A DNA stretch of 64,000 nucleotides from a virus: positions 25,748 through 89,747 of the IMG/VR virus record IMGVR_UViG_3300002835_000007, one strand, 5' to 3'. The stretch's first letter is position 1; the number at the start of each line of letters is the position of its first letter. The translations under genes and the position numbers were made by a program. Positions 9,128 to 61,981 of the stretch are shown here, piece after piece. The notes under the pieces are model-generated. The model searched no databases, had not been told where the DNA came from, and was given only the letters and a program-made list of their open reading frames with translations.

Positions 9128-9129
9128 TT

Positions 9130-14085: not shown

Positions 14086-14537
14086 CAAGAACTGTAAGAG
14101 TTGATGGTGTTATTATGTCTATTCAAGAAGCATTACATAAAGCTGAACAATCTGAAATGGATTTGGTTTTAATTAATGATAATGCTGAACCTAAAATATG
14201 TCGCATATTAAACTATCAAAAGTTTTTATACGAACAAAAAAGAAAAGACAAAGAAAAGAGTAAATCACTTGAACTTAAAGAAATAAAGTTAGGACCAAAC
14301 ACATCTGAAAATGATTTATCTTATCGTTCTAAACACATTATTGAGTTTTTGGATAAAGGACATAAAGTAAAACTTACTATGCAGTTCAGAGGTCGTGAAA
14401 TGGCCTTTGTTTCCAAAGGTGAGTTGATTATGTTAAAATTGATTGATTCGATTTCAGAACATGGGTTGCCAGAAAGTATGCCAAAGATGGAGGGTAAAAG
14501 AATGCAATGTCTTCTAAAACCAAAAGTTAAGAAATAA
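14040..14537 (+). CDS. infC: translation initiation factor IF-3
   Basis: 165 aa. Colinear with bacterial IF3: N-domain INDEIIARTVRVDG...DLVLIN, linker, and C-domain KEIKLGPNTSENDLSYRSKHIIEFLDKGHKVKLTMQFRGREMAF. Overlaps the previous ORF by 46 nt. Confidence 0.85.
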   Translation: MAKKKREHRINDEIIARTVRVDGVIMSIQEALHKAEQSEMDLVLINDNAEPKICRILNYQKFLYEQKRKDKEKSKSLELKEIKLGPNTSENDLSYRSKHIIEFLDKGHKVKLTMQFRGREMAFVSKGELIMLKLIDSISEHGLPESMPKMEGKRMQCLLKPKVKK

Positions 14538-16740: not shown

Positions 16741-18726
16741 ATGATTAAAATAAATGATATAATAGAAGGGAAGTTAAGTATGAACGCAAGTGGTTCTGCT
16801 TATTTGGTGAGTGAGAATATACCAAAAGATATTTACATACACAAATCTAAAACAAACAAAGCGTTACATTTAGATAAAGTTAAAATAGAGGTAATCCATG
16901 GACAAGGACGTTCTATAGAAGGTAAAGTAATTGAAATTGTAGAACGATTTAGAACAGAATTTGTAGGTACAATACAAATAAGTGAGAAGTTCGCTTTCTT
17001 TGTACCAGATTCAAATAAAATAATAATTGATTTCTTTATACCTTTGAATAAATTAAATGGTGCTATACATGGTCAAAAGGTTGTTGCAGCATTGACTGAA
17101 TGGAAAGAAGACGCTAAGAACCCTAATGGTAAAATAGTTAGAGTTATTGGTAATTCTGGTGAACACGAAACGGAAATACATTCAATCTTAGAAGAATACG
17201 GATTACCTTATGATTTCCCAGATGATGTAATAGCAGAGTCTGAAGCAATATCAGAAGAAATACTACAATCTGAAATAGAGAAACGTATAGATATGCGTGA
17301 TGTGTTGACATTTACCATTGACCCACATGATGCAAAAGATTTTGATGATGCGTTGAGTGTTAGATGGGTTGATGGAGTATTGGAAGTTGGTGTTCATATC
17401 GCTGATGTGGCACACTACATGCGACCAGAAACTGAATTGGATAGAGAAGCGTTTGCTAGAGGAACTAGTGTTTACCTAGTGGATAGATGCGTGCCAATGA
17501 TACCAGAGAAGCTTTCTAACGGACTTTGTTCACTAAGACCACACGAAGATAAGCTTTGCTTTTCAGTGGTGTTTAAAATCGACCAAAATGGACGTGTGAT
17601 GGATGAGTGGTTTGGTAGAACAGTAATACATTCTGACCATAGATTTACATATGAAGAAGCACAATCGATAATTGAGGTAGGTAAACTACCTAAAGATGCT
17701 ATCGCTGAAGGTGAAACCTTAATATTTGAAAAATCTGGGTTAGGTTCTGTTGTTGGATGGGATAAAGCAACCAATTTAGGTAATGCTATATTGGTGTTGG
17801 ATAAATACGCTAAGAAAATGCGTAAGGTAAGATTTAGCAAAGGTTCTATTTCATTTGACAAACATGAAGTTAGGTTCAAGTTAGATGAAAACAACAAACC
17901 AATTGATATTATATTCAAGATTGGTAAGGATTCCAACAAATTGATTGAAGAATACATGTTATTGGCTAACAGACATGTTGCTCAGTTTATTAATCAAAAA
18001 GGTTTACCAATGGTTAACAGAGCTCATGATAAGCCAGATGAAGCTAAATTAGAAAGTCTTAAAGATTTCATTCATCAATTTGGTTATGAGATTAAAGTTG
18101 ACACACCAGAAGAAACAACTAAATCTTTGAATAAGTTGCTGCGTGATGTAAGAGGTACTAGTGAAGAAGAAATGATTACTAATCTTGTAGTTAGAACAAT
18201 GCAGAAAGCTGATTATAGAACAAAGAATATTGGTCACTATGGTTTAGGTTTCAAACATTATGCTCACTTTACAAGTCCAATCAGACGTTATCCAGATGTT
18301 ATTGTACATAGATTGTTAGCGTTGTATTTAGATGATACTAGAAAGACTAACCCTAACATTGCTAAATTAGATGGTAAGTGTACACATTTATCTGAAAGAG
18401 AGAAGAAAGCACAAAAAGCTGAACGTGATAGCATTAAGTTCATGCAATGTGTTTATATGTCAGATAAGGTAGGTAAAGTTTACAAAGGTATGGTAACTAG
18501 TGTTGCTGAATTTGGGTTGTTTATTACTATCGAAGAGAATGGTTGTGATGGGTTAGTTAAATTATCTGACATAATGGGTGACACATTTGTTGCGGATACT
18601 GAAAATTACCGAGTTAAAGGTACTAAAACTGGTGCTTATTTACGTTTGGGGGATGAAGTTCATGTAGTCGTAACGTCTGTTGATATTGAAAAAAAGAACA
18701 TTAATTTATCATTAATTAACCTATAG
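16741..18726 (+). CDS. rnr: RNase R / RNase II-family 3'-5' exoribonuclease
   Basis: 661 aa; N-terminal OB/cold-shock-like region, RNB catalytic domain (DPHDAKDFDDALSV) and a C-terminal S1 domain (KGMVTSVAEFGLFITIEENGCDGLV). Confidence 0.85.
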   Translation: MIKINDIIEGKLSMNASGSAYLVSENIPKDIYIHKSKTNKALHLDKVKIEVIHGQGRSIEGKVIEIVERFRTEFVGTIQISEKFAFFVPDSNKIIIDFFIPLNKLNGAIHGQKVVAALTEWKEDAKNPNGKIVRVIGNSGEHETEIHSILEEYGLPYDFPDDVIAESEAISEEILQSEIEKRIDMRDVLTFTIDPHDAKDFDDALSVRWVDGVLEVGVHIADVAHYMRPETELDREAFARGTSVYLVDRCVPMIPEKLSNGLCSLRPHEDKLCFSVVFKIDQNGRVMDEWFGRTVIHSDHRFTYEEAQSIIEVGKLPKDAIAEGETLIFEKSGLGSVVGWDKATNLGNAILVLDKYAKKMRKVRFSKGSISFDKHEVRFKLDENNKPIDIIFKIGKDSNKLIEEYMLLANRHVAQFINQKGLPMVNRAHDKPDEAKLESLKDFIHQFGYEIKVDTPEETTKSLNKLLRDVRGTSEEEMITNLVVRTMQKADYRTKNIGHYGLGFKHYAHFTSPIRRYPDVIVHRLLALYLDDTRKTNPNIAKLDGKCTHLSEREKKAQKAERDSIKFMQCVYMSDKVGKVYKGMVTSVAEFGLFITIEENGCDGLVKLSDIMGDTFVADTENYRVKGTKTGAYLRLGDEVHVVVTSVDIEKKNINLSLINL

Positions 18727-26463: not shown

Positions 26464-26670
26464 ATGGAAGAAAAAGATGAGATAGAATTATTACTAAAAA
26501 CACAATCGTTAGATATTGAAACCTTACGTAGGTTAAAATGTAGGTGTTTAAGTTTACGTGAATATGAATTAGCAGCAAAAATAATATTTGAGGAACGAAG
26601 GCTAAATGTTAGTAGATTAGAGAAGTTAGGACTAAATATAAAATCAAATGAAAACGATAGTAAAAAATAA
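26464..26670 (+). CDS. hypothetical protein
   Basis: 68 aa ORF; -7 box ends 4 nt before the ATG. Confidence 0.4.
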   Translation: MEEKDEIELLLKTQSLDIETLRRLKCRCLSLREYELAAKIIFEERRLNVSRLEKLGLNIKSNENDSKK

Positions 26671-27088
26671 GCGTGGGTACTATGAGTACACCATATTGGA
26701 GAAGTATGTTGCTGGAATCAAATTACAAGGTTCAGAAGTTAAATCTATTCGTTCTGGAAAGGTATCGATAGTTGAAGCATATTGTTTTATTGCCAACGAT
26801 GAAATCTTTATCAAAGGTATGCACATCGCAGAACACAAAGAGGGTGGTAAACATAACAACCACATACCAATTAGGGATAGAAAACTCCTTATGAATAAGA
26901 AAGAAATTGTTAAATTAAAACAACAAATTTCACAAAAAGGCTTGACTATTGTACCGTTAGAGGTTATATTAACTAATATTGGATTCATAAAGTTAGAGTT
27001 AGGTTTAGCCAAAGGTAAAAACTTACATGACAAAAGGGAGACAATAAAAGAAAAGGATTTAAAAAGAGAATTAGAACGTAATTTATAA
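26648..27088 (+). CDS. smpB: SsrA-binding protein SmpB
   Basis: 146 aa; colinear with bacterial SmpB (KNKRGYYEYTILEKYVAGIKLQGSEVKSIRSGKVSI...IPIRDRKLLMNKKEI...KLELGLAKGKNLHDKRETIKE). Confidence 0.9.
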   Translation: MKTIVKNKRGYYEYTILEKYVAGIKLQGSEVKSIRSGKVSIVEAYCFIANDEIFIKGMHIAEHKEGGKHNNHIPIRDRKLLMNKKEIVKLKQQISQKGLTIVPLEVILTNIGFIKLELGLAKGKNLHDKRETIKEKDLKRELERNL

Positions 27089-27110: not shown

Positions 27111-27971
27111 ATGAAACAAATTAAAATCGTAACAACAATTGCTAACATTGATGAAAATTCACTTAAATTTTATTTAAGAGATATCTATCAAGCAAAACCA
27201 TTCACAGTTGAAGAAGAATATGAATGTGCGTTAAGAGCACATAATGGTGATGAAAACGCTAGAGCTGAATTAATTTACCGAAACCTAAGATTTGTTGTTA
27301 CAGTTGCTAAACAATATTTAACTACAAATTTACATCTTGCTGATTTAATAAATGAGGGTAACATTGGATTGATATTGGCTGCCGATAGATTCCAACCAGA
27401 AAGAAATCTAAAGTTTATCTCTTATGCTGTTTGGTGGGTTAGAAAACTTATCGTTGAGTATATTGGTAAGAACGGTAAAATGATTAGATTACCATTCAAC
27501 AAAGTTCAATCAATGATTAAACTTAATAAAGTTTTATCTGAATTAGAACAAAAGAATGGTTACCATGTTAACGAATATGAAGCAGCAATCGAAACTAATG
27601 ATGAATCATTTAAATTGTTAGGTGAAATCAATTCAGTTAGAATGTTATCAATGGATAATCCATTGAGTGATGATGGTGATGGTTTAACGTTACATGAACT
27701 AATTAATGACCCAACAGCACAAACAACAGATTATTTAACAGTTAACTCTGATTTTAAAAGAGAAGTTAGAGAAAGTTTAAATATACTTAAACCTAATGAG
27801 AAAATAATAATTGAAGCTTTATTTGGTTTAGATGGTGGTGAACCTAAAACCTTAAAAGAGGTTAGTGAAATTGTTTTATTAACAAGAGAAAGAGTTAGAC
27901 AAATCAAAGAGAAATGTTTAATAAAACTCAGAGATAACAAAAAAATAATGGCAGCATATACTGATATTTAA
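27111..27971 (+). CDS. sigma70-family RNA polymerase sigma factor (SigA/RpoD-like)
   Basis: 286 aa; region 2 LRFVVTVAKQY...DLINEGNIGLILAADRFQPERNLKFISYAVWWVRKLI and a region 4 HTH (TLKEVSEIVLLTRERVRQIKEKCL). Confidence 0.85.
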   Translation: MKQIKIVTTIANIDENSLKFYLRDIYQAKPFTVEEEYECALRAHNGDENARAELIYRNLRFVVTVAKQYLTTNLHLADLINEGNIGLILAADRFQPERNLKFISYAVWWVRKLIVEYIGKNGKMIRLPFNKVQSMIKLNKVLSELEQKNGYHVNEYEAAIETNDESFKLLGEINSVRMLSMDNPLSDDGDGLTLHELINDPTAQTTDYLTVNSDFKREVRESLNILKPNEKIIIEALFGLDGGEPKTLKEVSEIVLLTRERVRQIKEKCLIKLRDNKKIMAAYTDI

Positions 27972-31545: not shown

Positions 31546-31618
31546 TGATAATAGGGGACGCTGAAAACCTAGACAGAGTAGGCAAATAATAAAAGTTAAA
31601 TAAAAAAAAAAGAAAAAA

Positions 31619-32401
31619 ATGAGAAAAGTTTTAGGATTAGTAATGTTAGTAGTTGTATTAGCATCATGTTCAAGAGTGGAACCAAATTATGAAGGTATCC
31701 TTATGGAAAATTATGGTAGAAATGGAAAGTCTGATTTCCATATTGTTACTGGTAAACAATGGACAATGGCTCCAGGTACGCAATTGTATCAAGTGCCTAT
31801 GTTTGAGGCAAGTGGTGATGCAGAAGCTGTTAATATTAGTGCTTTGGATGCTGGTCAGTTCTCTGTAGACCCAGTTTATCAATACCAACCATTACGAGGA
31901 AAAGGTATTGACATCGTGTTCAACTATAAACACTTGGGTGTTGATGAACCAGAAGTTATGTTGAATAATGTTGAAGCAAGTATTTTAAATCGATTAGTAG
32001 TTAATGCATATAGAGAAGAAGCACGTAATTATACTACTGATAGTCTTATGACAAACTTGAATAAATTTGAAGCTCAAGTACAAGCAAGACTTAAACGTGA
32101 GTTTGCTGAGAAATATTTTGATTTGAATGAAGTTACATCTGGGTTAACACCTCCAGAGTCTATGAGAAAAGCTATCGAAACTCGTAACAACGCAATTCAA
32201 GAAGCTAACACAGTTCAGAATGAGTTAAGAGTATCTAAGATGAAGTTAGAGAAAGCAAAGATTGACGCTGAAGCAAACAAAATACGTTCAGTTGGTTTGA
32301 CTAAGGAAGTGTTAACTAAACAATGGATTGAAGCAGTTCGTTATTCTAAGAACAAAGTTATTATCACTGATGGTAAAACACCAATGATTTATAATAACTA
32401 A
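31619..32401 (+). CDS. putative lipoprotein
   Basis: 260 aa; lipoprotein signal peptide with lipobox (LVMLVVVLASCS). Confidence 0.5.
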   Translation: MRKVLGLVMLVVVLASCSRVEPNYEGILMENYGRNGKSDFHIVTGKQWTMAPGTQLYQVPMFEASGDAEAVNISALDAGQFSVDPVYQYQPLRGKGIDIVFNYKHLGVDEPEVMLNNVEASILNRLVVNAYREEARNYTTDSLMTNLNKFEAQVQARLKREFAEKYFDLNEVTSGLTPPESMRKAIETRNNAIQEANTVQNELRVSKMKLEKAKIDAEANKIRSVGLTKEVLTKQWIEAVRYSKNKVIITDGKTPMIYNN

Positions 32402-43711: not shown

Positions 43712-45151
43712 TTAGTTTAATTCAAATGGTTGGTTGCCAAAGGTCAATTCGACACCACCAATTCCATGTTTTAAATTCAGACCTAAAGATGATGAGTTTA
43801 TGTTTCTTATAATTTCGGTTGCATCTTCTTGGCTAACGCCAGTGATTGCAATTGTATCATTTGTTGGGTTATTAATCGTTACTTTATCTCTAATTTGACT
43901 AGACATTAATGCTTTATATAAATTAGGCAATTTGAAATATAAGTTTGAGTTTGTATTTATTTTAATTTTTAATACTTGATTACGTCTAGCTTCTTCAGCT
44001 CTTTGTCTAGCTTCTTCCTCTTCTCTTTCTATACGTCTTGCTTCTTCTCGTTCAGCTCTTTTTCTAGCCTCTTCTTCATCAGCAATTCTTTTTTCCTCTT
44101 TAGATTCTTCAGCTCTAAGTTTGTCATAAATACCAGATTCACTATAATATTTGAATTTAACAAAGTTCTTTAATAAAGGGTTTGTTGCAATTTGTTCATC
44201 ATAAGTTCTATTATATAGATTTTCCCTCATGGTACCTTCTCTTGCATCTATATCACGTGGATTTCTTTCTGCATTTCTAACTAAGTTTTCAGCATAAGTT
44301 GGTTCTCTGAAAACTTTATCACGTAATTTTGTTAAAATTCCTTTTGCGATATCATCTTCTAATGGATTTTCTACACCTAATGCTGCTATTTCTCGTTTTA
44401 CTTTTTCAGTTAAATTTCTTAATTTAAAATTATCATCAAACATACTTAAAAAAACAAATTCTGCTTTTGGACGCATACTTTGAAGTAAATCTCTTTTATC
44501 ACTATATTGACTTTGTTCATCATTAGTCATTTCATATTCACCGTATATGATATAATCTCTAAGTTTCTCGTAATAACTAGTTAATGTTTTTAAAATTCTT
44601 ACATAGTCTTTAACTTCTCTTTCAGCTAATTTACGGTCTGTAATTAAACGGTTTAATCTGTTGAAAGCTTCTTTTCTATCTCTATCGTTATCATCAGTTA
44701 TAGGTGATGAATATAACATAATAAGACGTTTACCATCATTATGTTTTTCATTAATAAATTCATTTATTGCATCACGATTAGTTGCCATTATTCTTGCAGC
44801 TTGACCACCATTTAAAGTAGGGTACATAGTAATATTAGGTCCATTAATACTAAAACTAATTTCTAAAGCATAATCGTTTTCACCCATATATTCGATACCA
44901 ACATCAGTTAATTTACCATCATGTTGAAAAGAATATCTTTCTTTAAGATATATTTTTAAAAATACATTTAATAAACCATATTGTTCTGTTTTTATTTCAT
45001 ATTTAACAGTTCTATAATCATCGCCTTCATGTGCAATAGTATAAGGTGCTGCTTGACCGATTTCTGTCATTAACATTCTTTCAAAAATGAAATATTGCTC
45101 CAACCTCAAATTAGCTTCACGTATATTTTTCTTTTTATCAAATCTTCTCAT
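43712..45151 (-). CDS. paralogue family protein, long form (479 aa) with ER/K-rich single-helix segment
   Basis: Minus-strand ORF. N-terminus MRRFDKKKNIREANLRLEQ is shared with three neighbours. Conserved core (GQAARIMATNRDAINEF...KRLIMLYSSPITDD), a C-terminal module (RENLYNRTYDEQIATNPLLKNFVKFK...SGIYDKL), then EEARKRAEREEARRIEREEEEARQRAEEARR. Confidence 0.7.
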   Translation of the reverse strand: MRRFDKKKNIREANLRLEQYFIFERMLMTEIGQAAPYTIAHEGDDYRTVKYEIKTEQYGLLNVFLKIYLKERYSFQHDGKLTDVGIEYMGENDYALEISFSINGPNITMYPTLNGGQAARIMATNRDAINEFINEKHNDGKRLIMLYSSPITDDNDRDRKEAFNRLNRLITDRKLAEREVKDYVRILKTLTSYYEKLRDYIIYGEYEMTNDEQSQYSDKRDLLQSMRPKAEFVFLSMFDDNFKLRNLTEKVKREIAALGVENPLEDDIAKGILTKLRDKVFREPTYAENLVRNAERNPRDIDAREGTMRENLYNRTYDEQIATNPLLKNFVKFKYYSESGIYDKLRAEESKEEKRIADEEEARKRAEREEARRIEREEEEARQRAEEARRNQVLKIKINTNSNLYFKLPNLYKALMSSQIRDKVTINNPTNDTIAITGVSQEDATEIIRNINSSSLGLNLKHGIGGVELTFGNQPFELN

Positions 45152-45170
45152 TGTTTTATATTAGTTTAAA

Positions 45171-46166
45171 TTAATTTATTTCTTCAATATTTTTTATTGT
45201 TTTATTATCATAATAAACAATAGCTTTATATGCCTTAAATAAATCATAACCAGTTTTCTCATTAAAATATTGAAAAAAGTTTTTAGCCTCAGTTGCTGTT
45301 ACAGATTTTAATAGGTATTCCATATATTCAATACTACCTTGTTGTTTAGGCTCTAATTTACCTTTTTGTACAAAGAAACTATCTTTATCTTCATCGAACA
45401 TTTTTATAAATGCATTGTAGAAATCTTCATCATCCAAATCCATTGAACCACGTTTTATCACGTGAATCATTAAATTTGCTTTTTTCTCATAATTTTTCAT
45501 TTCATCAGATAACAAATCAACATTAAAGATACCAGAAAGACTACGTATTCTAAATTTTTTAAAGTTATTCATTATTTTTGACCTTTTAATTTCAATATCA
45601 TAATATAAATTATAAAGTTTTTCTCTTAAATCAGTTTCTTTTTTACCACCAGTTACTGGATATGAATAAACCACTACTAATCTTTTACCTTCTTGAATAG
45701 TTTTTTCTACCACTTCTAAAATTGCTGCTCTTACAGTTGCCATAATAGAAAAAACTTTGTTAGTATTTAATTCTGGGAAAGAAACGTTACCACTTTCATC
45801 TTTAAAAACTCCAAATGAAATATAAACACCAAAGATATCATCTGGTAAATTTTCACCTTCAAAACCTAATTCTCTAATTAATGATTCAAAATCTGGGTCA
45901 AAACCAGAATACAAACTCTTTGCTTTAATACTAATAGATACAAACATGTTCCACTCTGTTGATGGGTCTTCATCAGTTATCTCATTTTCATCTTTTGGTA
46001 CTTTAAAACCAACTCTATGACCCATACTGCCCCAATCACTTACCACTTCATATGGATACCCTTTTGAATCTGCGATTTCATTCAAGGTTATCATTTCAAA
46101 TAAACGGTCTTGTTCCAATCTTAAATTGGCTTCATGTATAATTTTCTTTTTATCAAATCTTCTCAT
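45171..46166 (-). CDS. paralogue family protein, short form (331 aa)
   Basis: MRRFDKKKIIHEANLRLEQ...; core KVFSIMATVRAAILEVVEKTIQEGKRLVVVYSYPVTGG; module REKLYNLYYDIEIKRSKIMNNFKKF...SGIFNVDLL. Confidence 0.7.
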   Translation of the reverse strand: MRRFDKKKIIHEANLRLEQDRLFEMITLNEIADSKGYPYEVVSDWGSMGHRVGFKVPKDENEITDEDPSTEWNMFVSISIKAKSLYSGFDPDFESLIRELGFEGENLPDDIFGVYISFGVFKDESGNVSFPELNTNKVFSIMATVRAAILEVVEKTIQEGKRLVVVYSYPVTGGKKETDLREKLYNLYYDIEIKRSKIMNNFKKFRIRSLSGIFNVDLLSDEMKNYEKKANLMIHVIKRGSMDLDDEDFYNAFIKMFDEDKDSFFVQKGKLEPKQQGSIEYMEYLLKSVTATEAKNFFQYFNEKTGYDLFKAYKAIVYYDNKTIKNIEEIN

Positions 46167-46172
46167 ATTGTT

Positions 46173-47168
46173 TTAATTATTTAAATAAGGGTCATTTACA
46201 TCAGAAATAATTTTATTACCATGTTTTATTTCAACTCCATTATTAACATCACTTTTAAGTTCTGCATTAAATTTTTCTCTAAATTTATTTAAAAATGTTT
46301 TAACACTTTCTTTTGATAACATTCTTATACTAGAATAGATGTATGTTCTACCATTAACTTCAGAAAAGTTTACATTCAAATTTGGATAAGTATTGTTATC
46401 ATTTAACACATCTAAATATTTCCAAAATTTATTATATAATTCTTCATCACCATCTTTAAAAATTGTAACTTCAAAAGGTTTTGAATCCAATGTTTTAACA
46501 TTAGCATGAACACTATCATTAGGTTTTAATAAATCAGCATTATAAATCCCACTATACCCCCCATAATTGAATTTTTTGAATCGACTTAATATTTTTGACC
46601 TTTTAATTTCCATATCGAAATATGTATTATAAAGTTTTTCTCTTAAATAACCATCTTTACCACCAGATAATGGATATGACCATATTATTAATAATTGTTT
46701 ATTATCAGCAAGTTGTCTCAAAATAAATTCATTAATTGCTGCTTTTACAGTTCCCATAATAGACAAAACTCTTCTACCTTTTAATTCTGGGTAATGCGTA
46801 GTATCATATTCATCAATCACACCAAATGATACTTCAATACCAAATATGTTATTTGGTAAATTGTTAAACGTTTCAGTATCGTTATCGATTATTCTAAGTA
46901 TAAAGTTTTCAAGACCTAATTTATTTCTACCATCAACACTTATATACATATTCCATTCTGTTGACGGGTCTATAGCAGTTATCTCATTTTCATCTTTTGG
47001 TACTTTAAAACTTACTTTATATCCATTAGAACCCCAATCTTTTAATATTTCATATGGATATCCTTTTGAATCTGCGATTTCATTTAAGTCTATCATTTCA
47101 AATAAACGGTTAGCTTCTAATCTCAAGTTAGCTTCAAATATATTTTTCTTTTTATCAAATTTTCTCAT
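46173..47168 (-). CDS. paralogue family protein, short form (331 aa)
   Basis: MRKFDKKKNIFEANLRLEA...; core RVLSIMGTVKAAINEFILRQLADNKQLLIIWSYPLSGG; module REKLYNTYFDMEIKRSKILSRFKKF...SGIYNADLL. Confidence 0.7.
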   Translation of the reverse strand: MRKFDKKKNIFEANLRLEANRLFEMIDLNEIADSKGYPYEILKDWGSNGYKVSFKVPKDENEITAIDPSTEWNMYISVDGRNKLGLENFILRIIDNDTETFNNLPNNIFGIEVSFGVIDEYDTTHYPELKGRRVLSIMGTVKAAINEFILRQLADNKQLLIIWSYPLSGGKDGYLREKLYNTYFDMEIKRSKILSRFKKFNYGGYSGIYNADLLKPNDSVHANVKTLDSKPFEVTIFKDGDEELYNKFWKYLDVLNDNNTYPNLNVNFSEVNGRTYIYSSIRMLSKESVKTFLNKFREKFNAELKSDVNNGVEIKHGNKIISDVNDPYLNN

Positions 47169-47177
47169 TGTTTTATT

Positions 47178-48617
47178 TTAATTATTTGGAACGTCAAATG
47201 GTTGACCCCCATAAGTTATTTCTACATGGTCTTGACCATTATTAAAGTCAGAGTTTAAAGCTGCTCTTATTTCTCTAACTATGCTTTCAGCAACATTTCT
47301 ATCAATATCTTTTATCTCTATAGAATTACCAATAGTACTTAAAAGATGGTTTAAAGATGGACGATTCCTCTTTAAACTATTTAAAACACTAATTAATCTA
47401 CTGTTATCTGAATTTAAATCATATAAACTAGATTGTTCACCTATTTTAATTATTAACTTTTGAGCGTTTAATGCATTTGTTATATCGGCATCAATTTCTG
47501 CATTAGTCTTTACTGGTTTGTCTTCACCAACAGCTTTAAGATAATCATAGATACCTATCTCACCACCTTTCTTGAATTTCACAAAGTTTTTTAATAATGA
47601 GTTTGACGCAATTTGTTCATCAAAATATTTATTGTATAAACGTTCTCTCATAGAACTTTCATCTGCTGGTAAAGCTGTTGATGATACTGGAGCGTTAGCA
47701 ACTAAATTTTGAATATAATCTACATCGGTTGAATCTATTTTATCACGTAAAAAACGTAATACTGAAAAATAAGTTTTAATGTTAATAATATCTTCATTGT
47801 CACCCTCTTGAGTTTGTGTTGCAGCTTCTCTTTTTGCTTGTTTTAGTAAATTATCTAAATTATATTGTTTATCATATAAACATAACAAGATTCCTTTTTT
47901 TGAACCAGCAATATTAAGATTATTAATAAAAGTCTGAGTATTATTCTCATATTTTTCACTTTCATCACCAGTCATTTTAGGACGATATTCACCGTCAATT
48001 AATATTGCTCTAAAAATAATTTCATAATAATAATCCAATAATTTTTGAATTTTAACATAATTTCTAACCTCTCTTTCAGAAACTGGTCTATTATTCGAAA
48101 CATAACCTTTTAAAGTGTCTATAGCCCTTTCTCTAGCCTTATCATTATTATCTTCAACTGGAGATGAAAATACCATAATTAGACGATAACCTTTAGCTGC
48201 CATCTCATCAATATATTCACTAGTAGCTTTAGTGTTTGTCGCCATGATTTGTGCTGCTTGAGAGTTTATTGTACCGTAAGTACTAATATTACTCTTTTCA
48301 GTTGTTTTAACACCAAAACTAATACCAATACAATAATCTTTTTCATCCATTTCTTCAATACCAACACGGTCAAATCTATATTCTAGTCTGTTAAAATCAC
48401 TTTTAAAATATTTAGAAATAGTTAATTCCATAGTTACTAAACCATATTGTTCTGTTTTTATTTCATATCTAACGTTTCTATAACCGTCATCTTCATATGA
48501 AATAGTATAAGGTGCTGCTTCACCAATTTCTGTCATTAACATTCTTTCAAAAACAAATTCTTGCTCTAATCTCAAATTGGCTTCACGTATAATCTTCTTT
48601 TTGTCAAATCTTCTCAT
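47178..48617 (-). CDS. paralogue family protein, long form (479 aa)
   Basis: MRRFDKKKIIREANLRLEQEFVFERMLMTEIGEAAPYTI... is near-identical at the 5' nucleotide level to 43712..45151. Core SQAAQIMATNTKATSEY...YRLIMVFSSPVEDN; module RERLYNKYFDEQIASNSLLKNFVKFK...IGIYDYL. Confidence 0.7.
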   Translation of the reverse strand: MRRFDKKKIIREANLRLEQEFVFERMLMTEIGEAAPYTISYEDDGYRNVRYEIKTEQYGLVTMELTISKYFKSDFNRLEYRFDRVGIEEMDEKDYCIGISFGVKTTEKSNISTYGTINSQAAQIMATNTKATSEYIDEMAAKGYRLIMVFSSPVEDNNDKARERAIDTLKGYVSNNRPVSEREVRNYVKIQKLLDYYYEIIFRAILIDGEYRPKMTGDESEKYENNTQTFINNLNIAGSKKGILLCLYDKQYNLDNLLKQAKREAATQTQEGDNEDIINIKTYFSVLRFLRDKIDSTDVDYIQNLVANAPVSSTALPADESSMRERLYNKYFDEQIASNSLLKNFVKFKKGGEIGIYDYLKAVGEDKPVKTNAEIDADITNALNAQKLIIKIGEQSSLYDLNSDNSRLISVLNSLKRNRPSLNHLLSTIGNSIEIKDIDRNVAESIVREIRAALNSDFNNGQDHVEITYGGQPFDVPNN

Positions 48618-50952: not shown

Positions 50953-51330
50953 ATGTATAGACAAGAAACAATACTATATAAAGATACATACAATATACAC
51001 ATAACAAAAGACTATGTAGATAATATCCTTATAGAAGAAATTCACTATAATAGAAACAATAGAATAATATATAAGAACAATATTGAATGTGAAGTAAAAT
51101 ATTTCTATGATGTAAATGTAAAATATGAACTACAGTTATCTAAAAATATTAAACAAGAAAATATCTTACGTAAAATAACACAAGATACAAAAAACTTTGG
51201 TAGTGAAAAACATTATATAATAAATGATAACACTTGTACATATTTCTGTACAATGAATAATCATGACGCAATAAAATACATAAAAGAATATATAAAAACA
51301 TATATACTAAAATCTAACAATCTTATATGA
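50953..51330 (+). CDS. hypothetical protein, paralogue of 35648..35998 and 38627..39271
   Basis: 125 aa; MYRQETILYKDTYNIHITKDYVDNILIEEIHYN... Confidence 0.45.
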   Translation: MYRQETILYKDTYNIHITKDYVDNILIEEIHYNRNNRIIYKNNIECEVKYFYDVNVKYELQLSKNIKQENILRKITQDTKNFGSEKHYIINDNTCTYFCTMNNHDAIKYIKEYIKTYILKSNNLI

Positions 51331-51557
51331 ATAATAACGCAAATAAGTATATAAGAAAAAAGTTTAAAGTATTCTTTGGCAATATGAAATCACCCACAAT
51401 GTACGCAGAACTTAATAACGGAAAATATACAAAAACATTCCAGAATGAACATGGTAATATAGTGTCAGATTTTATTACCATAGAAGAATATGCAGCAGCA
51501 CTAGGGCATATCCTCCTAAGAGAAAATGGCTACAAATACTTTGAGAATAAAACATAA
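51327..51557 (+). CDS. hypothetical protein
   Basis: 76 aa ORF; last gene before the 1-kb non-coding region. Confidence 0.4.
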   Translation: MNNNANKYIRKKFKVFFGNMKSPTMYAELNNGKYTKTFQNEHGNIVSDFITIEEYAAALGHILLRENGYKYFENKT

Positions 51558-52270
51558 CTATACTATGTCACATGTATACATACATAACAATTTTTATATG
51601 ACAATACTAATATCATCATATAACTTATACGATAATTTAATAGTAATATAACACCAGTGTACCACATACCCATATACTGTGGGGAACGTAGTTCCCATCA
51701 AGTACAACTTGTACAGATTTCTGTACAAGGTATGGATATGACGTACTTATTTGTACCTACATTAGCACGCAAATATTATGTGGCGATTTTGAGCCAAAAA
51801 ACGGGTTTTTGTGGTAAAAAGTGGTAAATAGTGTAAGTAAATGGTACAAAGAATTAGTAAATGGCGTTTTTTACCTAAAAATAGGGTATGGACATAGATT
51901 TTCCATAGGGGAAAATAAGTTAAAGAAACCTTTATGCCCTTTAAAAACACGCAACCACTTTTTCAGCCGAAATTTACGGACACAATGTTTCACGTGGAAC
52001 ATTACCACAAAAACGTGCATAGTAAGTCAGCCCAGCCCAGTAAAAATATTGGCACAAGTTATTGCCCCTACTTAAAAAAGTAAGGGTATAAATTTATGCA
52101 CCAAATCTCGTGGAAAGGGTGTGCAAATATAATATGTCAAATTTCACTTTGTCATAAGCGTTAAAATTAATATTTAAATTTCAGTATACAAATGTAAGCA
52201 TAATATTTTAATCTACCAAACTTTTTTGCAATTTATAATCATTCTAAATAAGGGTTGTTAAAAAAAGTTT
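51558..52270. other. ~1-kb non-coding region with palindromes and iteron-like direct repeats (candidate replication origin / regulatory hub)
   Basis: No convincing ORF. Perfect palindromes GTACAACTTGTAC (~51702) and TGTACACGTGTACA (~52425). TGGGGAACGTAGTTCCCA inverted repeat. Direct repeats GTGGTAAAAA / GTGGTAAATA / GTAAGTAAATGGTAC / AGTAAATGGCG (51800-51870). Repeated GGTATGGAYAT. Locally higher GC than the flanks. Confidence 0.5.
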
Positions 52271-52360
52271 AGGGTAGGTTGGAGTCTACTCTTCTGAAAC
52301 TTGTTAAGTCAGCACGTATCTCTTTCAAACCTACAATACAAATGTAGGTATAATAAATTT
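52271..52360 (+). repeat. ~90-bp intergenic repeat, copy A (GGTTGGAGTCTACTCTTC...GCACGTATC...CTACAATACAAATGTAG..ATAATAAATT)
   Basis: Shares the GGAGTCTACTCTT core, a CACGTAT motif, the palindrome CCTACAATACAAATGTAGG and an ATAATAAATT box with copies at 53786, 54991 and 59546. Confidence 0.65.
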
Positions 52361-52469
52361 AATATCCTAATAAAAAAAATTTTTTTATTAATTATTTTTT
52401 TATTATATTACACACGCACATATGTACACGTGTACATTTATAGAATAGTGGTATTAAAATTTTTTTTAA

Positions 52470-52540
52470 TTATTTTTTATAAAGTAGTAGGATATTAAAA
52501 AAGTTTATATATCTTTGTAGGGTATTAATCAATTAAAACA
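52470..52540 (+). promoter_or_regulatory. promoter of a distinct class: upstream GTAGTAGGATATTAAAAAAG, -7 TATCTTTG, downstream GTATTAATCAATTAAAAC
   Basis: -7 box TATCTTTG at 52509-52516 with no -33 TTTG. The same extended pattern occurs at 53295-53355, 53930-53985 and 60385-60445. Confidence 0.45.
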
Positions 52541-52547
52541 ATTACAT

Positions 52548-53264
52548 ATGAGTTTGGTATTTAAACACAAAGACACTATTCAAGTTGTTACGTTAGCAAC
52601 AACAAAGAATGACAAAATTGAATCTAATAAGAAACGTAAGATAGTACAAACGTACACGTTTTCTTATAAGCAATTTGAGTTAGTTAAGAAACGTTTTGAA
52701 ACGAATGAAGCAATTGGCATGAAAAACTTTTTTAGTAACGCAGATAGCAATTGTTTGGATTGTCCTTTCAATTCTTATGGCAAATGTTATACACATAAAT
52801 TTAATCAATACGTTGGTTTTATTTCATCTTTAAAAAGTGTATTTAGAAAGTTTGGTAGTATAGACAATATACCTAACTTTGATATTTCAATGTTAGACAA
52901 AGTTACCAAAATGAGCAAAGGTACTTATGTACGTTTCGGAACGTATGGTGAACCAAGTTTGCACCCAATTGAATTAATTCGTTCTATGGTAAAAGTATGC
53001 GACAATTGGACGGGTTATACGCACCAATGGAATAAAACTAATTTAGGTGATTATTTTATGGCAAGTACGCATACAACAAGTGAGCAACAAAGTGCTGAAA
53101 TTTTAGGTTATAGGTCGTTTGTAGCAACTGAAAATAAGTTAGGGTATGTTGGTTGCCCAGCGAGTAAAGAAATGGGTTATAAGTCGAGTTGTAGTGCTTG
53201 TAATTTATGTAGTGGAAAGTTAGGAACTAAAACAAATAAAAGTATAGAAATTATCCTACATTAA
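52548..53264 (+). CDS. hypothetical Cys-rich protein
   Basis: 238 aa; several CxxC pairs (CLDCP...CSACNLCSG). Confidence 0.45.
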   Translation: MSLVFKHKDTIQVVTLATTKNDKIESNKKRKIVQTYTFSYKQFELVKKRFETNEAIGMKNFFSNADSNCLDCPFNSYGKCYTHKFNQYVGFISSLKSVFRKFGSIDNIPNFDISMLDKVTKMSKGTYVRFGTYGEPSLHPIELIRSMVKVCDNWTGYTHQWNKTNLGDYFMASTHTTSEQQSAEILGYRSFVATENKLGYVGCPASKEMGYKSSCSACNLCSGKLGTKTNKSIEIILH

Positions 53265-53294
53265 TGTAGGGTAATTTTTTTTAAAACTTTTTAT

Positions 53295-53355
53295 ATAAAG
53301 TAGTAGGAAATTAAAAAAGAATGTTTATATTTGTAATGTATTAATCAATTAAATA
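53295..53355 (+). promoter_or_regulatory. promoter, GGAAATTAAAAAA / TATATTTG / GTATTAATCAAT class
   Basis: AGTAGGAAATTAAAAAAG 53301-53318; TATATTTG 53326-53333; GTATTAATCAATTAAAT downstream; ATG 53365. Confidence 0.45.
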
Positions 53356-53765: not shown

Positions 53766-53785
53766 ATTTTTATTTTTTTTATATG

Positions 53786-53880
53786 GACGTGACGGAGTCT
53801 AGTCTTCCATTCCCACGGCACGTATCGATTATCAATCATCTACAATACAAATGTAGAAATAATAAATTAGATATGCAAGA
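53786..53880 (+). repeat. ~90-bp intergenic repeat, copy B
   Basis: GACGGAGTCTAGTCTTCCATTCCCACGGCACGTATCG...TCTACAATACAAATGTAGAAATAATAAATT; follows terminator 53733-53765. Confidence 0.65.
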
Positions 53881-53933
53881 AAAAAGTGATTAAAAATAAA
53901 AATAATTTTTTTTTCATTATTTTATATAAAAAG

Positions 53934-53985
53934 TTTGGAAATTAAAAAAAAAGCGTTACATTTGTAATGTATTAATAATCTAAAA
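53934..53985 (+). promoter_or_regulatory. promoter, TTTGGAAATTAAAAAAAAG / TACATTTG / GTATTAATAATC class
   Basis: TTTG 53934-53937; TACATTTG 53957-53964; ATG 53996. Confidence 0.5.
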
Positions 53986-53995
53986 AACAAATAAG

Positions 53996-54880
53996 ATGAA
54001 CACACAAGAAAAAGTACAAGAAATTTTAAAGTCTAATGGATTAGATTTTACAATTGAAAAAGCACCTATGATGGCTTTAAATTCTAATGGTATCTATGTA
54101 CCAAGTGAGTATTTCGGTTTGATTAATTCAAGCACGAATGAAGTGATTAACACCGTAAAAGAGGGTTATACGGTATCTCAAAACGAAGAGGTTGTTGAGT
54201 TGGTTATGCGTGGAATTGAACCTTTCGGAAACGATATTCAAGTTACCAAAGGTGGTGCGTTGAATGGTGGACGCAAAGTGTTTTTACAACTTGCTATCAA
54301 TGGTGACGGCAAAGTTAATGGTGACACTATTAAGAAGTATATTACTATCGTGGATAGTAATGACGGCAGTACGGGTCTATCGGTAGGTATTGGTGATTTA
54401 ACTATGAGTTGCAGTAACCAATTTTTTAAGTTCTACAAAAGTGGACAATCTAAATTTCGTCATACGGCAAGTTTGGAACGTAGAATCAAAGAAATTCCTT
54501 TCCTTATTGAAACGGCTTTATCTGAATCATTAAGACAAATTGAAATCTACAATCAATTTGCAAGTACGCAAGTTTCACGTGATTTGGCACACAAAATGGT
54601 TAAACACTTATTAGGGTTTGACAAAGTGTATACAAGTGTAAAAGACTTGTCAGATAAGTCTACACGTAGTATAAACAAAATGGATGCTTTATACAACGCT
54701 ATTGAACGTGAAATGAATAGCAAAGGTGACACGTTGTGGGGTTTACATAGTGGAATTACATATTACACTACACACGAATTGTCAGCACCAAAACGTGACA
54801 ATGGTAAAGTTGAAACTTTGTTACAAGGAACGGGTTACAATATGAACCAAGCAAGTTTGGAATTTGCTTTAAATTACTAA
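53996..54880 (+). CDS. hypothetical protein (possibly DUF932 / phage-plasmid TIGR03299-like)
   Basis: 294 aa; N-terminal LKSNGLDFTIEKAPMMA...; the family call is from memory only. Confidence 0.4.
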   Translation: MNTQEKVQEILKSNGLDFTIEKAPMMALNSNGIYVPSEYFGLINSSTNEVINTVKEGYTVSQNEEVVELVMRGIEPFGNDIQVTKGGALNGGRKVFLQLAINGDGKVNGDTIKKYITIVDSNDGSTGLSVGIGDLTMSCSNQFFKFYKSGQSKFRHTASLERRIKEIPFLIETALSESLRQIEIYNQFASTQVSRDLAHKMVKHLLGFDKVYTSVKDLSDKSTRSINKMDALYNAIEREMNSKGDTLWGLHSGITYYTTHELSAPKRDNGKVETLLQGTGYNMNQASLEFALNY

Positions 54881-54913: not shown

Positions 54914-54990
54914 TAAATAACTTTATTTGCAAAGGTCGAATTTATTTTGTACCTTTGCAAATTTTTTTCTTATATGGTAAAAAAAATATA

Positions 54991-55078
54991 AGGTAGGTTG
55001 GAGTCTACTCTTTCAAGATTTCCCTCGACCCGTTTCGGTTATCACCACCAACAAAACAAAGGTAGGGATAATATATTT
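54991..55078 (+). repeat. ~90-bp intergenic repeat, copy C (more diverged)
   Basis: AGGTAGGTTGGAGTCTACTCTTTC...CCCGTTTCGG...AACAAAGGTAGGGATAATATATTT; follows hairpin 54889-54913. Confidence 0.55.
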
Positions 55079-55130
55079 AAAAAACAAACTTTTGTTGCAT
55101 AAAAAAAAATAATTATTTTCTCACAAAATA

Positions 55131-55161
55131 GTTGCAGAATTAAAAATAATGTTTATCTTTG
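55131..55161 (+). promoter_or_regulatory. promoter (-7 TATCTTTG 55154-55161, weak -33 GTTG)
   Basis: GCAGAATTAAAAATAATG upstream element; ATG 55186. Confidence 0.45.
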
Positions 55162-55185
55162 TAGGGAACAATAAAACAAAACACA

Positions 55186-55725
55186 ATGAAAAATTTAAAT
55201 GACGTAAGATTAATGGCAGAAACATTAATGACAAAACAATTCACGTTTAACACGTACCATGGGGTTTATACATTGAGTGGTGAACAATTAGGTTATACGT
55301 TTAAGTTTGATAGTGCAAAACGTAGATTTGGTTGCTGTAGTTATGGTAAAAAAACTATTGGTTTATCTATGCCACTATGTAATGAAAATTTAGATAAAAT
55401 AGACACAAAGATTACTGACACTATGTTGCACGAATTGGCACACGCATTTTGTGTTCACGTGTATGGTGTAAGGGACGGAAGAGGTCATGGGTACAATTGG
55501 CAACATATTGCAAAACAAATTGGTTGTGACGCTAAAAGATGTTTTAGTAGTGATAGTGTTAATTTACCTAAATCAAAATATACTTTGTTATGTGAGAGTT
55601 GTGGTAAAGAAACACCAAAACACAAAGTGATTAGAAAGACTTATGCTTGTGCTAAATGTTGTGATGAACATAACAACGGAAAATTCAGTTATGATTATCA
55701 ATTAAAATTAGTTACGAATTATTAA
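55186..55725 (+). CDS. SprT-like zinc metalloprotease-domain protein with C-terminal zinc ribbon
   Basis: 179 aa; HExxH in an SprT context (TMLHELAHAFCVHVYG...GHGYNWQ) and CESCGKE...CAKCC. Confidence 0.55.
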   Translation: MKNLNDVRLMAETLMTKQFTFNTYHGVYTLSGEQLGYTFKFDSAKRRFGCCSYGKKTIGLSMPLCNENLDKIDTKITDTMLHELAHAFCVHVYGVRDGRGHGYNWQHIAKQIGCDAKRCFSSDSVNLPKSKYTLLCESCGKETPKHKVIRKTYACAKCCDEHNNGKFSYDYQLKLVTNY

Positions 55726-55763
55726 AAAAGATTTGCATAAGTGAAAACTTATGCTTATCTTTG
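55725..55763 (+). repeat. 40-bp repeated promoter element, copy 1: AAAAAGATTTG-[GCATAAGTGAAAACTTATGC]-TTATCTTTG
   Basis: -33 TTTG 55732-55735; perfect 7-bp-stem hairpin 55735-55754 inside the 20-nt spacer; -7 TATCTTTG 55756-55763. Identical copies at 58855-58894 and 60115-60155. Confidence 0.7.
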
Positions 55764-55785
55764 ATTAAACAAAACAATAAAAGTT

Positions 55786-57156: not shown

Positions 57157-57169
57157 AATAAAATTAAAA

Positions 57170-57216
57170 AGATTGGATGAATGTTATTGTTTATCCAATC
57201 TTTATTCTTATATTTG
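57170..57216 (+). promoter_or_regulatory. hairpin (AGATTGGAT...ATCCAATCT) followed by -7 TATATTTG
   Basis: 9-bp stem 57170-57178/57193-57201; TATATTTG 57209-57216; preceded by AAAAAGATTGG. Confidence 0.45.
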
Positions 57217-57246
57217 TTAAACAAACCAATTAAAACTTTAGAACCT

Positions 57247-57444: not shown

Positions 57445-57495
57445 AATAATAATCCAATTTATATTTGGTAGATTGGATTATTATTCTTATATTTG
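57445..57495 (+). repeat. hairpin-promoter element, copy 1 (AATAATCCAAT-TTATATTTGGTAG-ATTGGATTATT + TATATTTG)
   Basis: 11-bp stem 57448-57458/57472-57482 with the -33 TTTG (57465-57468) in the loop; -7 at 57488-57495. Near-identical copy at 61908-61958. Confidence 0.65.
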
Positions 57496-57517
57496 TTAAA
57501 CATTAAAAATAAAGATT

Positions 57518-58477: not shown

Positions 58478-58509
58478 TTTGGATAATCGAAATATTATCC
58501 TTATCTTTG
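58478..58509 (+). promoter_or_regulatory. promoter AAAAGATTTG-[GGATAATCGAAATATTATCC]-TTATCTTTG
   Basis: TTTG 58478-58481; 7-bp-stem hairpin 58481-58500 in the spacer; TATCTTTG 58502-58509; ATG 58537. Confidence 0.5.
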
Positions 58510-58536
58510 TTTCACAAACAAATTAAAACTAATATT

Positions 58537-59527: not shown

Positions 59528-59545
59528 TGCGTGTAAAAAAATAAA

Positions 59546-59636
59546 AGGCACGTTGGAGTCTACTCTTCCATTCCCACGGCACGTCTAACTTGACAATACA
59601 AAGATTGCAATAATAATTGACATATGCAAGTAAAAT
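59546..59636 (+). repeat. ~90-bp intergenic repeat, copy D
   Basis: GGCACGTTGGAGTCTACTCTTCCATTCCCACGGCACGTCT...GACAATACAAAGATTGCAATAATAATTGACATATGCAAG; follows terminator 59505-59527. The tail TATGCAAG is shared with copy B. Confidence 0.65.
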
Positions 59637-60114: not shown

Positions 60115-60155
60115 TAAAAAAGATTTGCATAAGTGAAAACTTATGCTTATCTTTG
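60115..60155 (+). repeat. 40-bp repeated promoter element, copy 3
   Basis: AAAAAAGATTTGCATAAGTGAAAACTTATGCTTATCTTTG; -33 60124-60127; hairpin 60127-60146; -7 60148-60155; ATG 60178. Confidence 0.7.
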
Positions 60156-60177
60156 ATAAACATTAAAACAAAACATT

Positions 60178-61293: not shown

Positions 61294-61300
61294 TTTAAAA

Positions 61301-61346
61301 TAATGGCACTATCATTTGGTAGTGTCATTTCTTTTTACTATCTTTG
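61301..61346 (+). promoter_or_regulatory. hairpin with -33 in loop (AATGGCACTA-TCATTTGG-TAGTGTCATT, one G:T pair) + -7 TATCTTTG
   Basis: TTTG 61315-61318; TATCTTTG 61339-61346; ATG 61372. Confidence 0.5.
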
Positions 61347-61907: not shown

Positions 61908-61958
61908 TAAAATAATCCAATTTATATTTGGTAGATTGGATTATTATTCTTATCTTTG
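61908..61958 (+). repeat. hairpin-promoter element, copy 2 (near-identical to 57445-57495)
   Basis: AATAATCCAATTTATATTTGGTAGATTGGATTATTATTCTTATCTTTG; -33 61927-61930; -7 61951-61958; ATG 61982. Confidence 0.65.
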
Positions 61959-61981
61959 TTAAAACAATAAAATAAAACAAT

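Follow-up and report, generated by a model that had tools for sequence, protein, structure and literature searches.

A conserved phage non-coding region with predicted parS and MraZ sites, a putative docking hub for host proteins

What is kept in the one long gap of an otherwise gene-dense stretch of phage DNA? The question is raised by 64,000 nucleotides (nt) of the IMG/VR virus record IMGVR_UViG_3300002835_000007 (positions 25,748 to 89,747), here called the window, whose own numbering is used for all positions. With ATG-initiated open reading frames (ORFs) of at least 50 amino acids (aa) taken as coding, the longest ORF-free stretch in the window was 51558-52547 (990 nt), and the runner-up was 380 nt. 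An earlier note, made from the letters alone, had rightly called this the only long gap, and had offered a replication origin, a pac/cos-proximal regulatory region, or a binding array for a DNA-binding protein as interpretations. The present results suggested that the gap would be a conserved, non-coding, cis-acting docking hub for host ParB and host MraZ at a transcriptional boundary of a large phage. Our confidence in this reading is about even.

Relatives were recovered by searching with the 238-aa protein encoded downstream of the gap; the 125-aa protein encoded upstream gave zero viral matches as a probe. In L226, the protein was 97% identical to the query and the gap DNA was 97% identical across 1261 nt. 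The gap was 72% identical over its whole length in L227 and 65-68% identical in L001, the closest viral relative. L232 and L230 were related contigs, partial only. The window and these five contigs made up a six-sequence alignment. Among the cultured phages of INPHARED, no DNA relative of the gap was found, and the MraZ-box segment gave only weak matches.

Six short ORFs lie within 51558-52547. None was frame-preserved in L227 or L001, where in-frame stops and indels of 1, 7, 11, and 34 nt occurred, and a PHROGs search of the six gave zero matches. A protein-coding gene in the gap was ruled out by the broken frames and the absent matches. The earlier note had said that a coding gene with homologues, or repeats not conserved in related phages, would speak against it; no such gene was found, and the repeats were kept in relatives. 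The elements on which the docking hub reading depends are the following.

51811-51844, plus strand: predicted MraZ-binding repeats, GTGG-TAAAAA-GTGG-TAAATA-GTGT (51811-51834), then N6-ATGG as a fourth box
51945-51984, unstranded: conserved block before parS, AAACAC..TTTTTCAGCC.AAATTT..GGACACA, with invariant columns in the six-sequence alignment
51986-52001, unstranded: predicted parS of the canonical chromosomal type, TGTTTCACGTGGAACA (minus strand TGTTCCACGTGAAACA)

The 18-nt inverted repeat reported in the earlier note was present at 51985-52002 (ATGTTTCACGTGGAACAT), with 16 of 18 positions complementary. The idealised ParB site is TGTTTCACGTGAAACA (PMC7383237). TGTTTCACGTGGAACA matched this consensus at 15 of 16 positions and was the sole site with at most one mismatch in the window. 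It was invariant across all six aligned sequences. The minus-strand reading TGTTCCACGTGAAACA also fits the Lin and Grossman consensus, TGTTNCACGTGAAACA. By these matches the repeat is a canonical chromosomal-type parS, and for this reason the test of ParB binding suggested in the earlier note was apt. L001 and L230 carried two more parS sites just past the 238-aa gene. Among more distant relatives, L200 had one site and L223 had two perfect copies; in L223 the homologue of the 51945-51984 block is a 63-nt unit that is doubled, with its own parS in each copy.

The site shares with the chromosomal parS/ParB (Spo0J) centromere a strictly conserved 16-base-pair (bp) palindrome that agrees with TGTTTCACGTGAAACA at all positions but one. 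It differs in lying on a phage genome beside MraZ boxes, in being present once (two or three times in some relatives), and in that no parA or parB was seen in the window. P1 parS and N15 sopC, the partition sites of plasmid prophages, are likewise centromere-like sites on phage genomes. Those sites are specific to phage-encoded ParB/SopB and have par genes alongside, whereas the gap site has the consensus of host chromosomes and the window showed no par genes.

Canonical parS alone was common in viral contigs, with at least 120 IMG/VR loci. Among the 120 parS-bearing loci listed, none had a MraZ-box array within 800 nt, and MraZ-box-like arrays occurred in such viral loci once per 1.07 Mb. A general association of parS with MraZ boxes in viruses was thus ruled out, and the pairing is therefore specific to this phage group. 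Many of the cultured INPHARED phages had parS-like matches, among them Pseudomonas phages (XD2 for one), Listeria and Clostridium perfringens phages, and 'bajarodino' microviruses. Some records matched at 4-10 places, and the match in Pseudomonas phage psageK4 (108-131) lay about 100 nt from the record start.

The second element was reported in the earlier note as iteron-like direct repeats. GTGGTAAA was found twice (51811, 51821) and was conserved in relatives; AGTAAATGG was also present twice. All of the listed repeats existed where the earlier note had placed them. The GGTATGGA units (51729, 51885), however, were unconserved in L226 and L227, and because of this they are treated as probably due to chance. 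A MraZ box is defined as GTG(G/T) with a 6-nt spacer (PMC12957436; bioRxiv 10.1101/2022.02.09.479790). The pattern GTGG-N6-GTGG-N6-GTGK had one occurrence in the window and none in 100 shuffles. The 'iterons' can accordingly be identified as predicted MraZ operator boxes, three to four in number and letter-identical to the Bacteroidota operator.

Species-representative bacterial genomes were scanned with the pattern TGTGGTAAAAAGTGGKRAA, of which the window version is TGTGGTAAAAAGTGGTAAA. At least 120 loci were found, overwhelmingly in Bacteroidota (Pedobacter, Flavobacterium, Tenacibaculum, Polaribacter, Aquimarina, Chitinophaga), with a few from other phyla. The array was non-coding in 106 of the 120 listed loci, and 95 of 97 measured non-coding sites lay at most 120 nt upstream of the next same-strand ORF. 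In more than 100 Bacteroidota genomes, arrays sharing a 19-22-mer with the window stood 40-120 nt upstream of mraZ-mraW. The window array matched DNA upstream of mraZ exactly over 22-28 nt in Flavobacterium, Pedobacter, Polaribacter, and Tenacibaculum, among others. In both loci tested with Pfam (L338 and L313), the ORF after the array encoded MraZ and was followed by MraW.

parS and MraZ boxes are textbook chromosomal elements. To our knowledge, the only well-established target of MraZ is its own dcw promoter. The phage array has in common with this Pmra operator (upstream of mraZ-mraW in the dcw cluster) the GTG(G/T) boxes, the 6-nt spacers, the number of three or four, and the sequence TGTGGTAAAAAGTGGTAAA. 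It differs in that it overlaps no recognisable promoter and is not 40-120 nt upstream of a gene. A captured host promoter was ruled out, as the host similarity ends at the boxes and no TAnnTTTG box lies downstream of the array. With similarity confined to the array and a distal position, the phage arrays are neither captured promoters nor obvious gene-specific operators.

Of the 107 IMG/VR stretches in which the 15-mer TGTGGTAAAAAGTGG was found, about half had it in a non-coding gap, and many of these gaps measured 700-1400 nt. At the non-coding matches, further GTGG boxes (a third or a fourth) were often present with a spacing of 10-11 nt. Coding matches (e.g. L160, L167, L171, L205, L209, L210) encoded a recurring C-G-K-K-W peptide at the ORF end (…LICGKKWK), a motif that is unrelated to MraZ boxes and inflates the raw 15-mer counts. 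L070 and L119 shared the array 22-mer while their flanking proteins were unalignable. In L070 (3294-4415; also in L119), a gap of about 1.1 kb in a 78-kb phage contig that is otherwise unalignable held an exact copy of the 22-mer TTTTGTGGTAAAAAGTGGTAAA, along with a third GTGG box. L070 also had ACACAAATGTGTAC-type palindromes, and a copy of the small-RNA-like element described below lay at a distance of about 500 nt; a DUF932-like gene was present as a remote homologue (22% identity, E 0.03).

The gap is conserved as discrete islands divided by fast-evolving spacers. Between the window and L227, identity was 96% in the H1-H2 hairpin block, 95% in the MraZ-box (GTGG) array, 86% in the parS block, and 87% in the H6 block (52061-52150); the spacers were 39-57% identical and the flanking coding DNA 80-89%. 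In L223, the element order was the same as in the window: TGTACA palindromes, MraZ boxes, parS (twice), leftward promoter, a box like CATTCTAAATAAG, small RNA, AT-rich tract, and rightward promoter. This order was shared despite only 53% identity of the L223 homologue of the 76-aa protein encoded next to the gap. L200 had a four-repeat GTGG array and a parS separated by about 310 nt, and its DUF932 gene shared 50% identity with the one in the window. The palindrome, the TTGTAC..ATTAGCACG block, and the MraZ boxes were kept in L183.

Amplification of islands was seen in several relatives. L227 (about 430-560 and 770-830) had three tandem GGGGAACGCAGTTCCC units and a run of ACCCATTAGAT-like 11-mers. 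In L223 (9500-10700, minus strand), the doubled island was the parS-containing 63-nt unit. The leftward promoter was doubled along with the CATTCTAAATAAG box in L001 and L230.

Which proteins would use these sites? Pfam scans of the roughly 75 window ORFs found no ParBc domain and no MraZ domain, and thus no cognate ParB/ParA on the same replicon within the window. Since the array is also letter-identical to the host operator, a host protein would be the simplest ligand. Host ParB would load at the phage parS, and a host MraZ oligomer would bind the boxes on phage DNA. Recruitment and titration are the most plausible consequences of such putative binding. By recruitment, ParB clamps would organise or position the large phage chromosome via SMC or ParA, and MraZ and ParB complexes would form a nucleoprotein boundary that insulates two transcription blocks. 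By titration, multi-copy phage DNA would draw ParB and scarce MraZ off the host centromere and the dcw promoter. A phage regulator may act at the TGTACA palindromes, and leftward transcription from the promoter P1(-) may clear or tune the occupancy of the sites. Of the three interpretations in the earlier note, the binding array comes closest, as the best-conserved islands are predicted protein sites; the sites are of host type, however, and not for a phage-specific protein.

Several points weigh against docking of host proteins. The phage MraZ boxes are not promoter-proximal: viral sites were mostly more than 200 nt from the next same-strand ORF, and about 700 nt in the window, so that the known repressor logic of MraZ is not directly transferable. 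Similarity to host DNA was limited to the box array of about 22-33 nt. L183 had TGTTC-N6-GAACA where parS would stand, with the MraZ boxes retained. The window covers only 64 kb of the genome, and a ParB or MraZ homologue of the phage's own could lie elsewhere. A conserved leftward promoter and a GC-rich core would suit an RNA product equally. The whole basis of the reading is sequence identity and conservation, and the benefit to the phage is speculative.

The sites could instead serve ParB-like and AbrB/MraZ-like proteins encoded by the phage outside the window, and in that case the phage would have in the gap a partition or regulatory site of its own. The window is 64 kb of a genome of maybe about 250 kb (the L001 contig has 246,795 nt), and many window ORFs are without annotation, which leaves room for such genes. 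Yet neither domain occurred among the ORFs scanned, and the array was letter-for-letter the host operator in phages as unrelated as L070 and L119, a pattern more readily explained by a conserved host protein than by phage proteins that co-evolve. This alternative is considered unlikely.

Considered similarly improbable is that an RNA is the main product and the protein-site matches are secondary, with P1(-) driving a non-coding transcript of about 470 nt over the core (about 52180 to 51708). The elements in and next to the core are listed here.

52181-52232, minus strand: leftward promoter P1(-), GTTTGGTAGATTAAAATATTATGCTTACATTTGTA read 52230-52186, with the -7 box at 52189
52065-52086, minus strand: hairpin CCCCTAC-N8-GTAAGGG, with better pairing on the minus strand
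51681-51696, unstranded: palindrome GGGGAAC-GTA-GTTCCC in the H1-H2 block, 96% identical in L227
51707-51729, unstranded: double-TGTACA palindrome B, CTTGTACAGATTTCTGTACAAG at 51708-51729, terminator-like on the minus strand

P1(-) points into the core and is followed by no ORF. Reversed, it matches the plus-strand promoters that precede many window genes. Its TTTGG and TAnnTTTG elements were retained in all relatives, and the doubling of this consensus promoter in L001 speaks for a transcript. The guanine plus cytosine (GC) content is also in its favour. The core (51650-52160) had 36.4% GC in a window of 29.7%; the earlier note's claim of locally higher GC therefore held for the core, but not for the gap overall (28.8%) or for its tail at 52350-52547 (15.7%). 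Folding z-scores were -4.1 for the minus strand and -3.9 for the plus. The 52065-52086 hairpin changed on both sides: on the minus strand, pair 4 was U-G, G-U, U-A, or U-U among relatives, and pair 1 went from C-G to U-A in L227, while on the plus strand position 4 had to be skipped by RNAalifold. The minus-strand hairpin at 51729-51708 resembles a terminator, but has no U-tract.

For a single large structured RNA, however, the support was at best weak. Both strands folded about equally well, and the RNAalifold consensus was weak on both, with compensatory changes at 3 of 31 minus-strand pairs and 6 of 40 plus-strand pairs. A 13-nt long-range pairing (51805/52002) was lineage-specific, being lost in L227 and deleted in L001. 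The Rfam search proposed in the earlier note (Rfam 15, gathering threshold) matched no known family in the gap, and 51300-52800 gave only chance-level scores (E 3-9). The tRNA and transfer-messenger RNA (tmRNA) scan of the gap found none. As conservation takes the form of short islands amid poorly conserved spacers with large indels, discrete binding sites fit better than one large RNA.

The palindromes of the putative docking region may have a ligand of another kind. In addition to palindrome B, two were found.

51232-51253, unstranded: double-TGTACA palindrome A, CTTGTACATATTTCTGTACAAT, within the 3' end of the 125-aa ORF
52422-52437, unstranded: perfect 16-mer palindrome ATGTACACGTGTACAT, inside the AT-rich tract

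Of the palindromes with a TGTACA core described in the earlier note, CTTGTACAGATTTCTGTACAAG and the perfect ATGTACACGTGTACAT were confirmed. Single TGTACA was not enriched in the window (17 seen, 20 expected), and paired TGTACA sites occurred at only three places in the 64 kb (51235, 51710, 52423). The three double-TGTACA palindromes (51232, 51707, 52420) bracket the region. At the position of palindrome B, relatives kept an inverted repeat of altered sequence (ATGTACACAATTGTGTACAT in L001, ATGTACACATTTGTGTACA in L223, ATGTACACTTTTGTGTACAT in L183), and L001 had ATGTACACAATTGTGTACAT at the positions equivalent to both A and B. As the palindromes change sequence in step within each relative, we infer a candidate dimeric regulator acting at them. 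The Bacteroidetes LexA motifs GGA-N5-TCC and CTAA-N5-TTAG (PMC8565304) were rejected, as they do not fit the palindromes. The GGGGAAC-GTA-GTTCCC unit was present in three tandem copies in L227 and was absent from L001.

Beyond P1(-), the leftward-reading part of the gap holds a conserved box and a small-RNA-like gene with copies elsewhere.

52240-52252, unstranded: conserved box CATTCTAAATAAG, flanked by P1(-) and the end of the small-RNA-like gene, a single occurrence in the window
52258-52331, minus strand: small-RNA-like gene with the invariant motif AGAGUAGACUCCAAC at 52278-52293, a TACATTTG box at 52339, and a terminal U-run
about 54975-55065 and 59535-59605, minus strand: further small-RNA copies
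about 53776-53846, minus strand: diverged small-RNA copy

CATTCTAAATAAG was found in L001 (twice), L226, L227, L230 (twice), L232, L040, and L108, and the surrounding block was 83-88% conserved. The next-largest gaps of this region of the window are explained by the small-RNA copies, and all window copies are antisense to the surrounding rightward genes. Other copies were found in L001 (5725, 7321, 8548) and at many IMG/VR loci (L026-L121). A 15-mer derived from AGAGUAGACUCCAAC occurred in 96 IMG/VR stretches, often in several copies per contig; the motif was absent from the 120 listed host mraZ loci and the 120 listed viral parS loci. The build is a TTTGG-N19-TAnnTTTG promoter, a variable 5' part, a short hairpin, AGAGUAGACUCCAAC, and a U-run, with promoter, motif, and U-run in 53 distinct copies.

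RNAalifold on a MAFFT alignment of the copies gave no structure, and folding z-scores were about 0. The variable hairpin arms were unalignable by MAFFT, and anchored hairpin and arm-swap tests were used. A hairpin was found beside AGAGUAGACUCCAAC in most copies. Cognate arms formed a mean of 4.10 bp against 3.77 when swapped, and 59 of 5000 permutations reached the observed mean, which is modest covariation. With E values of up to 10 allowed, the copies still scored with no Rfam model. The copies would apparently form an undescribed multi-copy small-RNA-like family of Bacteroidota phages.

The sole Rfam match at gathering score was a DUF805b motif (RF02914) at 31551-31584 (plus strand; 35.8 bits against a cutoff of 35.6); the gene in whose leader it lies (31619-32401, phrog_200) is lipoprotein-like. 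The DUF805b consensus has a 3' half, AGAGUAGGCA (a hairpin then AAaAGAGUAGGcA), that resembles the small-RNA hairpin followed by AGAGUAGAC. Unlike DUF805b, the small-RNA copies are free-standing with their own promoter and U-run, are not 5' leaders, and have no Rfam score.

The surroundings of the gap were compared for promoter type. The relevant features are as follows.

51327-51557, plus strand: gene of a 76-aa protein, directly upstream of the gap here and in relatives
52350-52547, plus strand: AT-rich tract containing the palindrome ATGTACACGTGTACAT and the promoter of the gene 52548-53264 (TATCTTTG at 52511-52518)
55720-55770, 57160-57225, 57450-57500, 58480-58520, 60120-60160, 61300-61345, and 61915-61960: promoters with an inverted repeat in the spacer

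Upstream of the gap, TACATTTG was the dominant plus-strand -7 box (23 copies) and TATCTTTG was not among the six commonest types. Downstream, the boxes were mainly TATCTTTG (13) or TATATTTG (7). The gap sits exactly at this switch of plus-strand promoter type, and the change in promoter style proposed in the earlier note was upheld. The downstream promoters of the TATCTTTG class had an inverted repeat over the spacer from -33 to -7, e.g. TTTGCATAAGTGAAAACTTATGCTTATCTTTG and AATCCAATTTATATTTGGTAGATTGGATT. Two phage sigma factors are encoded in the window (9121-9672, ECF-like, and 27111-27971), so that each promoter class may have a holoenzyme of its own, or a spacer-binding protein may gate them. 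The 76-aa gene is linked to the non-coding region: its homologues adjoin the equivalent region in L227 (81% aa identity), L001 (72%), and L223. The 76-aa protein had no significant Pfam or PDB match, and the PDB sequence search with the 238-aa downstream neighbour was empty.

The AT-rich tract bears on the origin interpretation, in which the repeats would be initiator iterons, the tract would unwind, and the inward promoter would activate or prime replication. Such a model would draw on the 10-bp phasing of the direct repeats, on the 15.7% GC tract at a distance of 300 nt, and on the inward direction of the promoter, and bacterial parS sites lie near oriC (PMC7383237). The repeats, however, are explained as MraZ boxes, and the tract is similar to the ordinary downstream intergenic modules at 53273-53353, 53904-53985, and 55110-55183. 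No consensus DnaA box (TTWTNCACA) was found in the gap, and one-mismatch boxes were unenriched, at 6 in the 990 nt compared with a window average of 4.0 per kb. Among the annotated ORFs of the window, none was recognised as encoding a polymerase, primase, helicase, or initiator. Cumulative GC skew, a check named in the earlier note, followed the gene strand in the window and had no inflection or extremum at 52 kb. With no DnaA boxes, no skew extremum, and no nearby replication genes, the origin is unsupported, and we consider it very unlikely.

An injection stop of the T5 type is held to be slightly less probable still. In this model, incoming DNA would pause as host DNA-binding proteins grip a repeat-rich untranslated region that ends the first-transferred segment. 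The T5 injection-stop region (iss) is 1.2-1.7 kb of untranslated DNA with repeats, palindromes, and host DnaA boxes, conserved above neighbouring ORFs (bioRxiv 10.1101/866236). As an analogue of the gap, iss/Repeat Region 3 appears striking: both would be untranslated, rich in repeats and palindromes, furnished with host-protein sites, conserved above nearby ORFs, and carried by a phage with an A1 gene. The gap likewise separates two gene blocks, and an A1-like DNA transfer protein is encoded in the window at 9702-11282 (phrog_1745, E 3e-152). That gene is 40 kb away, however, and no A2 gene was identified in the window. The phage gap has predicted ParB and MraZ sites in place of the DnaA boxes of T5, and paired DnaA boxes inside inverted repeats were absent; the DnaA model is hypothetical for T5 itself.

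Nothing was found in favour of a pac/cos-proximal region. Four independent metagenome contigs (L226, L227, L230, and L232) end within the gap or at most about 330 nt from it, perhaps because assemblies break at repeats or because strains vary. They break at different points, so that these ends are no evidence for a genome terminus.

The other genes of the window indicate the type of phage. The window has about 30% GC, and almost all transcription is rightward from Bacteroidetes-type promoters (TTTGG-N19-TAnnTTTG). The A1-like protein was 45% identical to A1-like proteins of Flavobacterium and Maribacter phages. As L001 comes from a 246,795-nt IMG/VR contig, the window is regarded as part of a large, probably jumbo phage, and we infer that the host was probably a Flavobacterium-like member of the Bacteroidota. 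Genes for translation and RNA quality control (14040-14537, 16741-18726, 26648-27088) encode IF3, a full-length RNase R-like protein with RNB, cold-shock, and S1 domains, and SmpB; the tRNA/tmRNA scan detected no tmRNA gene in the window. A cluster for NAD and ADP-ribose (77-2258, 5016-5780, 6811-7857, 11688-12140) encodes nicotinamide phosphoribosyltransferase, NADAR, Macro domain, Sir2-like, ribose-phosphate pyrophosphokinase-like, and NUDIX proteins, and would be apt for countering host defences that deplete NAD. Leftward genes form a single block (43712-48617, minus strand), with four paralogous ORFs in the order 479-331-331-479 aa. The outer pair was 40% and the inner pair 45% identical, all four are interrelated, and none had a Pfam or PHROG match. 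The DUF932 protein (53996-54880) was 94-96% identical in L227 and L001, against 56-87% for its neighbours, which points to unusually strong constraint or recent exchange. A SprT-like protein was also annotated in the window.

A full-text literature search of incomplete coverage returned no relevant report on MraZ repeats in phages or on host-type parS on phage genomes, and the novelty of the phage parS and MraZ boxes is provisional. A host-factor trap is put forward tentatively, as a possibility well short of even: in large Bacteroidota phages, a DNA mimic of the host centromere and the cell-division operator would capture ParB and MraZ or titrate them, and antisense promoters and a small RNA would go with it. 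If so, takeover would proceed by binding-site mimicry with no protein effector, and segregation and division would be controlled, or ParB/SMC would be borrowed for a large genome.

The conservation of parS and MraZ boxes together in the largest non-coding region of the phage suggests that DNA sites alone are the means by which phages manipulate or borrow cell-cycle proteins of the host. In low-GC IMG/VR contigs, a MraZ-box array was found in about 50 large non-coding gaps, and phage-borne arrays would form a second natural class of MraZ site and a handle on what MraZ senses. For gaps of the 'iteron plus palindrome' kind, an origin should not be the default reading. A host-type parS on a phage with no par genes seen in the window makes hitch-hiking on host ParABS/SMC directly testable.

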